From a virus (Duplodnaviria; Heunggongvirae; Uroviricota; Caudoviricetes): a stretch of DNA of 8,879 bases. Position numbers and translations under genes: made by a program. The notes beneath the pieces were generated by a model. That model worked only from the letters and a program-made list of their open reading frames with translations, was not told where the DNA came from and searched no databases. The DNA lies in IMG/VR virus record IMGVR_UViG_2663763232_000017, positions 1 to 8,879 of that record. One strand, written 5' to 3'. The stretch's first letter is position 1. Every line of letters starts with the position of its first letter. Positions 361 through 819 of the stretch are shown piece by piece.

Positions 361-500
361 TTTGACTTCTCCGAAGTTTTGTACCTGTTAAGTATTTCTC
401 TCAGTGGCACAGCTATTGCTGGATTAACCCCCTGATAAAACTGGTCACGTAGCACATCTTTTCGGTGATTAACGCGTTTATTTTCCTGCGTTTTTCGCAT
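357..500 (-). CDS. Small hypothetical protein (47 aa) between cII and the replication gene
   Basis: Internal Met of listed ORF 357..665; minus-strand GAGGT 6-7 nt upstream of the ATG at 500..498. Its stop TGA overlaps the rep ATG (ATGA), suggesting translational coupling. The N-terminal extension of the listed ORF overlaps cII and is not supported. Confidence 0.4.
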   Translation of the reverse strand: MRKTQENKRVNHRKDVLRDQFYQGVNPAIAVPLREILNRYKTSEKSK

Positions 501-511
501 ATAATTACCTC

Positions 512-578
512 GTTGGATGTTGTTAAAATTCCATTTGTATTTGTTCAGAACGCTCGGTTGCCGCCGGGCGTTTTTTAT
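512..578 (+). ncRNA. oop: OOP-like antisense RNA, complementary to the 3' end of cII
   Basis: Plus-strand consensus -10 TATAAT at 500..505 (weak -35) and strong intrinsic terminator at 549..578. The stretch TTTGTTCAGAACGCTCGGTTGCCGCCGGGCGTTTTTTATTGGTGA matches my recollection of the lambda t0/oop terminator. TSS is estimated, not observed. Confidence 0.6.
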
Positions 579-819
579 TGGTGATTTCATCAAGCGCATA
601 CTTAAAAGCTCTGCTAATCGGACTGATGTCTGATGCCATTCCGAAAGCACACAAGACCGAAGCAATAAATCTCCAGTCCGTTCTGCTTATCTTCGATTCA
701 TGACAGCCAATCATCTTTGCCAGACCGCGCTGGGTAAGCGTTGACAGGTTGATGAGTAAATCAGTTTCAGCGCGATCAATTTCTCGCTGTGTTGGCTTGC
801 TGTAACTTGTTTGTTCCAT
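523..819 (-). CDS. cII: CII transcriptional activator
   Basis: 98-aa ORF whose C-terminus ...ITNKKRPAATERSEQIQMEF matches the lambda CII C-terminus as recalled. Position downstream of cro on the same strand. Confidence 0.9.
   Translation of the reverse strand: MEQTSYSKPTQREIDRAETDLLINLSTLTQRGLAKMIGCHESKISRTDWRFIASVLCAFGMASDISPISRAFKYALDEITNKKRPAATERSEQIQMEF
549..578 (+). terminator. Rho-independent terminator (lambda t0/tOOP-like)
   Basis: 9-bp stem AACGCTCGG/CCGGGCGTT (one G-U pair) with a 6-nt loop, followed by TTTTTTATT. Lies inside the cII 3' coding region on the opposite strand. Confidence 0.8.

Follow-up and report, generated by a model that had tools for sequence, protein, structure and literature searches.

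The stretch of DNA analysed here (the window, 8879 nt) is the early region of a lambdoid prophage, oriented opposite to the standard lambda map. cI (HTH plus Peptidase_S24), N, erf and other genes are on the plus strand. The minus strand carries a Cro-like HTH gene (961..1176), cII (523..819), a small open reading frame of 47 amino acids (357..500) and an O-like replication initiator (1..360; HTH_36, phrog_4617). The nearest records are mosaics of Stx1a/Stx2a phages, HK97, CUS-3 and mEp213. Within the O-like gene, positions 1..69 hold a threefold direct repeat with copies of 21-24 nt (CCCTAGGGCAGCTCCTGCCCCACC); the third one is 88% identical. Each copy contains the palindrome GGGCAG-CTC-CTGCCC, and the repeats probably are the origin iterons. 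Another palindrome, CCGCTTATTAAGCGG, is located at 954..968 directly after the cro-like gene, i.e. in the cro-cII spacer where lambda carries nutR/tR1. At about 861..872 there is also GCGTGGAAACGC, a second sequence which could form a hairpin. On the plus strand, 4004..4972 encodes a protein of 322 amino acids with a long, strongly charged E/A/K/R-rich stretch, which is named TolA or hypothetical in related phage records.

The cII gene, an entry of the open reading frame list, was identified by Pfam Phage_CII (E = 4e-35) and phrog_191 (E = 1.5e-38). Its C-terminus, ...KKRPAATERSEQIQMEF, is the same as that of lambda. The gene is a mosaic: the body is HK97-like, and the last approximately 20 codons together with the terminator described below are identical to lambda. 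HK97 itself has another cII tail and another terminator stem. Among IMG/VR contigs at least six different replication modules were attached to one and the same cII; thus, the oop region described below serves as a joint for recombination. Next to cII on its downstream side the window has the 47-residue frame (MRKTQENKRV...), which matched phrog_1913 over its full length (E = 4.7e-22). The label of this family, 'tail protein', seems to be an error, given where the gene is located. The frame has a good Shine-Dalgarno sequence (GAGG, complement of 508..511), a 7-nt spacer and an ATG start (complement of 498..500), and its stop codon shares bases with the ATG of the O-like gene (ATGA). It is unannotated in RefSeq Stx2a_F451 and in the PGAP E. 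coli records examined. The same slot is occupied by gp53 in HK97, which is unrelated in sequence, and by orf48 in P22, between oop and the O-like gene (PMC3349717); a small frame at this place is typical of lambdoid phages with an oop homologue.

Inside the 3' end of cII, on the plus strand, an intrinsic terminator is located at 547..576. It consists of a 12-pair stem with six G-C pairs, a 4-nt loop (UGCC) and a run of six U. The terminator scan reported the hairpin at 547..574 with the tail TTATTGGTGA and the T-run at 571..576. The hairpin has a calculated energy of -17.2 kcal/mol (z = -4.0), and none of 200 shuffled sequences folded equally well. A preliminary description of this DNA had recognised the lambda t0/oop terminator here. 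This was correct: 539..584 form a block of 46 nt which is identical to the 3' half of lambda oop plus tO, and the scan, when run on lambda, returned a tO string identical to that of the window. A bidirectional terminator was considered and rejected, because in the sense direction of cII TTCTGAACAAA comes after the hairpin and a U-run is absent. This fits the need of pR transcription to read through into the replication genes.

The lambda, F451, HK97 and P22 types all retain an antisense hairpin with a U-run within the 3' end of cII/c1, and the stem sequences differ among them. The HK97-type and P22-type CII/C1 tails have other amino acids, yet the antisense hairpin and the U-run are retained. 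When the lambda, F451 and HK97 types, which are homologous, were aligned, 97% of the cells paired, compared with 35-62% when the partners were slid. Two pairs are changed on both sides in the HK97 type (C-G to U-A and G-C to C-G); because they probably go back to a single evolutionary event, these compensatory changes are supportive and not strong statistics. Sequence conservation of the terminator could in part be due to the C-terminal residues of CII. The last 16 residues are functionally constrained and the C-terminal residues are the degradation tag for FtsH (PMC5869508). Across 52 distinct cII sequences, all closely related (at least 91% identical), synonymous change was low in much of the gene and not in the hairpin alone. 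A terminator variant, CGGTCTTGCACACCGGGCG, was encountered in Stx2a_F451 (5084..5204) and in many IMG/VR loci. There CII is one codon longer (PAAT is replaced by PVCKT), and the hairpin is preserved with the closing U-G pair turned into U-A.

Does the hairpin mainly terminate longer plus-strand transcripts that come from the replication genes, so that the TATAAT discussed below would be irrelevant? Two weak plus-strand promoter-like matches are indeed located upstream (238..266 and 303..330). Yet such matches are at chance level (four were found, 2.7 were expected) and, the upstream sequence being unrelated from one locus to the next, they show no conservation among modules. Further, a longer leftward transcript of this kind is not known in lambda. 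We regard this explanation as highly improbable.

Instead, the terminator appears to be served by a promoter of its own. The preliminary description had pointed to a consensus -10 hexamer, TATAAT, at 500..505 on the strand opposite to cII. This hexamer is present on the plus strand, cII being a minus-strand gene, and it aligns with the CATAAT of lambda pO. The distance from 505 to the start of the terminator stem at 547 is 42 nt, close to the approximately 45 nt which had been given. It is the sole TATAAT on either strand of the window. By itself a lone TATAAT is unremarkable as shuffled windows contain 4.5 each; arithmetic from this shuffle rate yields a chance of about 1% for a TATAAT within a 40-nt stretch that precedes a given terminator on its own strand. 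A TGn extension is absent. At 477..482 (+) a putative -35 element, TTTATT, can be read from the sequence; it has three of six matches and is separated from the -10 by a 17-bp spacer. A generic promoter scan made no call at this place because its rule demands at least four of six matches in the -35. With lambda as a positive control the same scan found pO. In total the window promoter matches the consensus at 9 of 12 positions, the same as lambda pO. Because of the 3/6 match in the -35 and the absent TGn extension the strength of the promoter is uncertain.

The surroundings of the hexamer impose several constraints. The -35 falls into module-specific sequence which differs between phages. The -10 is placed in the A/T-rich spacer between Shine-Dalgarno sequence and ATG of a real gene, hence it is also translationally constrained. 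It had been stated that the -10 overlaps both the start codon and the ribosome-binding site of the small open reading frame. The overlap with the start codon exists, albeit of a single base; an overlap with the ribosome-binding site does not, since GAGG begins 2 nt downstream of the hexamer. The Shine-Dalgarno sequence thus sits between the -10 and the predicted start of the RNA. The candidate promoter is convergent with pR, and its -10 touches the start codon of the gene that follows cII, i.e. it is arranged as pO. Taken together, we predict that the element at 500..505 belongs to a sigma-70 promoter which is equivalent to lambda pO.

The predicted transcript was delimited by comparison with lambda. 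Lambda pO is arranged as TTGAGT-17-CATAAT and carries a TG extension; the first base of oop is a G seven bases downstream (record 38675). The window reads TATAAT-TACCTC-G512, and alignment with the lambda start site places the 5' end at G512. The 3' end, judged from the T-run, should be within or just past it, at about 577. This yields an antisense RNA of about 66 nt (512..577, +), within the 65-75 nt proposed beforehand and between the lengths known for P22 (63 nt, PMC13397905) and lambda (77 nt, PMC3349717). The comparison with lambda oop that had been suggested in the preliminary description was carried out by global alignment: 61 of 66 positions are identical to the 77-nt lambda RNA, with gaps of 11 nt in the 5' third. 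The predicted RNA folds with -21 kcal/mol (z = -3.25) into a weak 5' hairpin and the terminator hairpin. A permissive Rfam scan of the whole window gave no match at E <= 1. Most likely Rfam does not contain an oop model, because a copy nearly identical to lambda oop scored nothing. A role of the RNA as a message for a peptide (open reading frame 517..633, +) was rejected. The frame lacks a Shine-Dalgarno sequence, its AUG is 5 nt from the predicted 5' end, and no stop codon precedes the terminator.

Thus, the reading as an OOP-like antisense RNA is supported by homology to lambda and by position, as far as sequence can tell. The decisive evidence is homology, i.e. the identical block of 46 nt, and not the TATAAT by itself. 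We consider it very probable that 500..577 (+) is the oop gene of a lambdoid prophage, consisting of a pO-like promoter, a start at about G512, tO and an untranslated RNA of about 66 nt.

Next to lambda oop the gene of the window is a short form (CATATAATTACCTCGTTGGATGTTGTTAAAATTCC). Its occurrence was examined in loci sampled from IMG/VR via the terminator pattern, the CII protein and a conserved 5' element. The CII protein retrieved close relatives only, and terminator diversity came from the DNA pattern on the conserved 5' element. The sample is not random. In this non-random sample 65 of 201 loci carried the short form. All 65 have TATAAT, no TGn extension, no LexA-like box and no stem-loop I, and among them the short form is joined to two different downstream genes. 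A long form with CATAAT, TGn and a LexA-like box was present in 130 loci. In every class sampled a [C/T]ATAAT overlaps the start codon of the first gene after cII. It is kept across at least seven unrelated downstream modules, in which the sequence upstream of the hexamer including the -35 differs, and also in some classes in which the discriminator and the 5' sequence of the RNA have diverged. The short form is common, and its carriers include CUS-3, Kapi1, Gally, JEP4 and many Stx2a phages. Further, this form was detected in 122 of 5,426 complete E. coli genomes (at least 80% query coverage), O157:H7 strains included. At these loci of the E. coli genomes cII is the only annotated feature.

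These data bear on the question whether the element is a silent relic. A lambda-like cII end might have been acquired by recombination, the terminator might be kept for the sake of the CII C-terminus and the TATAAT might be nothing but the A/T-rich spacer, no RNA of consequence being produced. The weak -35, the absent TGn extension, the constraint on the 16 C-terminal residues of CII (PMC5869508) and the location at a mosaic junction would agree with such a state. However, the change from lambda goes toward a perfect -10 and not away from it, and the TATAAT is invariant in the 65 sampled short-form loci, where it is linked to two different upstream modules. Second, antisense hairpin and U-run persist under the different CII/C1 tails of the HK97 and P22 types. 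Third, homologous RNAs with an equally poor -35 were seen by RNA-seq in P22 and BTP1 (PMC13397905, PMC7067206). A silent relic is therefore unlikely, and we return to an oop gene which is probably expressed.

OOP is among the oldest known antisense RNAs and helps to set the choice between lysis and lysogeny in lambdoid phages including the Shiga-toxin phages. As in lambda, the predicted gene is located between cII and the replication module. The RNA would cover the stop region of cII, as had been proposed: it is antisense to the 11-nt spacer (512..522), the stop codon (523..525) and the last 52 nt of cII, i.e. its overlap with cII at 523..577 amounts to 55 nt including the stop codon. Because the gene is encoded in cis, antisense to the pR transcript, complementarity is perfect over 66 nt. 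In lambda, oop is a self-terminating RNA of 77 nt made from pO (PMC3349717). It overlaps the coding part of cII by the same 52 bases, and it abolishes the activity of CII (PMC5869508). Mutation of the pO -10 abrogates oop expression and the antisense effect on cII, and scrambling of nucleotides 2-46 also removes this effect (PMC3349717). Stimulation of RNase III-dependent decay of cII mRNA by oop is reported in papers which cite Krinke and Wulff (PMC5869508, PMC2327240). By homology and position the element of the window probably works as lambda oop does. The RNA would pair with cII mRNA, the duplex would be cut by RNase III, and less CII would tilt the lysis-lysogeny decision toward lysis. 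In addition, polymerases starting from the pO-like promoter would meet pR transcription head-on just before the replication genes, and the collisions may trim the pR transcription which reaches these genes.

Possibly this interference is the main function and the short RNA is mostly a by-product. In lambda, pO limits pR transcription to the origin through convergent interference; pO- mutants replicate poorly whereas raised oop RNA leaves plasmid copy number unchanged, and direct interference between the convergent polymerases was proposed (PMC3985674). Further, the promoter is always situated at the entrance of the replication module, whichever module this is. On the other hand, lambda oop RNA supplied in trans abolishes CII activity and scrambling undoes this (PMC5869508, PMC3349717). 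Moreover, all types have the terminator at a constant position within cII, which would be needless for interference alone. A predominance of promoter interference is conceivable, though not what we favour; it is compatible with the antisense reading and differs from it in emphasis. We retain the oop gene with antisense action on cII as the best explanation. For lambda, the role of OOP in the removal of CII after SOS induction is minor, if any (PMC2327240).

Where does the short form depart from lambda? The RNA is 11 nt shorter at its 5' side. With these 11 nt the 5' arm of the long stem-loop I of lambda oop is gone and this structure cannot form. In place of the 14-pair stem-loop I (11 stem plus three inner pairs in the MFE structure) the RNA of the window has a hairpin of 4+2 pairs. 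Lambda +1..+14 is CTGGATCTATCAACAG, a CTG-N10-CAG box with one mismatch from the LexA consensus CTGT-N8-ACAG, and a LexA-binding sequence within oop-pO of lambda has been described (PMC5869508). In the window, 216..691 contain no LexA-like match with up to two mismatches. Thus stem-loop I, the complete 33-bp pO/5' element and the CTG-N10-CAG box, which make up a lambda-specific 5' domain, are missing here. Not every member of the family has this domain: P22 and the classes C-E differ too. The promoters differ at the -10, TATAAT without TGn in the window versus TGTCATAAT in lambda, and at the -35, TTTATT versus TTGAGT, at the same 17-bp spacing. The next gene is O in lambda and the 47-residue frame in the window. 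The antisense duplex extends 11 nt past the cII stop, whereas the RNase III site of lambda is 12 nt past it (PMC5869508). Because the duplex ends at this point, any cut by RNase III would have to occur elsewhere in the 66-bp duplex.

Is the short form a functionally distinct regulatory variant and not just a trimmed copy? We are doubtful. In that case synthesis of the RNA would not depend on SOS and might be constitutive in lysogens. Its first 35 nt, which are mostly unstructured, could speed up pairing with cII mRNA, and RNase III would cut in the stop and coding region of cII instead of the intergenic spacer. Stx2a prophages could then have a different lysis-lysogeny bias and, as a consequence, other levels of spontaneous induction and of toxin release. 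A literature search for accounts of the short form in Stx/O157 phages, or for mapped transcripts of it, yielded only general mentions of oop-like sequences (PMC5488031). Because a LexA-like box and stem-loop I are absent, lambda results on the regulation of pO and on the choice of the RNase III site may not transfer unchanged to the short form, which is frequent in EHEC prophages. Confirmation of the RNA would chiefly improve annotation, as it is absent from the RefSeq phage and PGAP E. coli records examined.

The kind of element is already known: oop-like RNAs of 63-77 nt have been described for lambda, P22, BTP1 and Stx phages. The short form has a modestly different 5' domain and promoter, which may uncouple it from LexA. 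Other short phage antisense RNAs, the aQ/paQ RNA of lambda and sar of P22, also lower a developmental regulator (PMC12197685). Their targets are Q and ant, their positions and sequences differ, and they have no homology to the element of the window. Closer relatives were detected by RNA-seq in BTP1 (PMC7067206) and as a 63-nt RNA, antisense to c1, in P22 (PMC13397905); oop-like sequences were noted in Stx phages (PMC5488031, PMC12197685). As in the window, the oop promoter of P22, BTP1, the HK97/HK022 type and the Stx phages is located where a small orf or an O-like gene begins, and in each of them an intrinsic terminator is placed inside cII (PMC3349717, PMC7067206, PMC13397905, PMC5488031). 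The described homologues have a 33-bp pO/5' element, ACTGGATCaATCcACAGGAGTaATTATG, in common (PMC3349717). The window has only its core, ...AGGTAATTAT..., and would therefore fail the 90% criterion of that study. The 3' half of the RNA is of the lambda type and not of the P22 or HK97 type. With lambda oop the gene of the window shares position and orientation, and the terminator and the 3' 39 nt of the RNA are identical. Both also show the same interleaving with the next gene, whose start codon is overlapped by the -10 and whose Shine-Dalgarno sequence directly adjoins the start site of the RNA.
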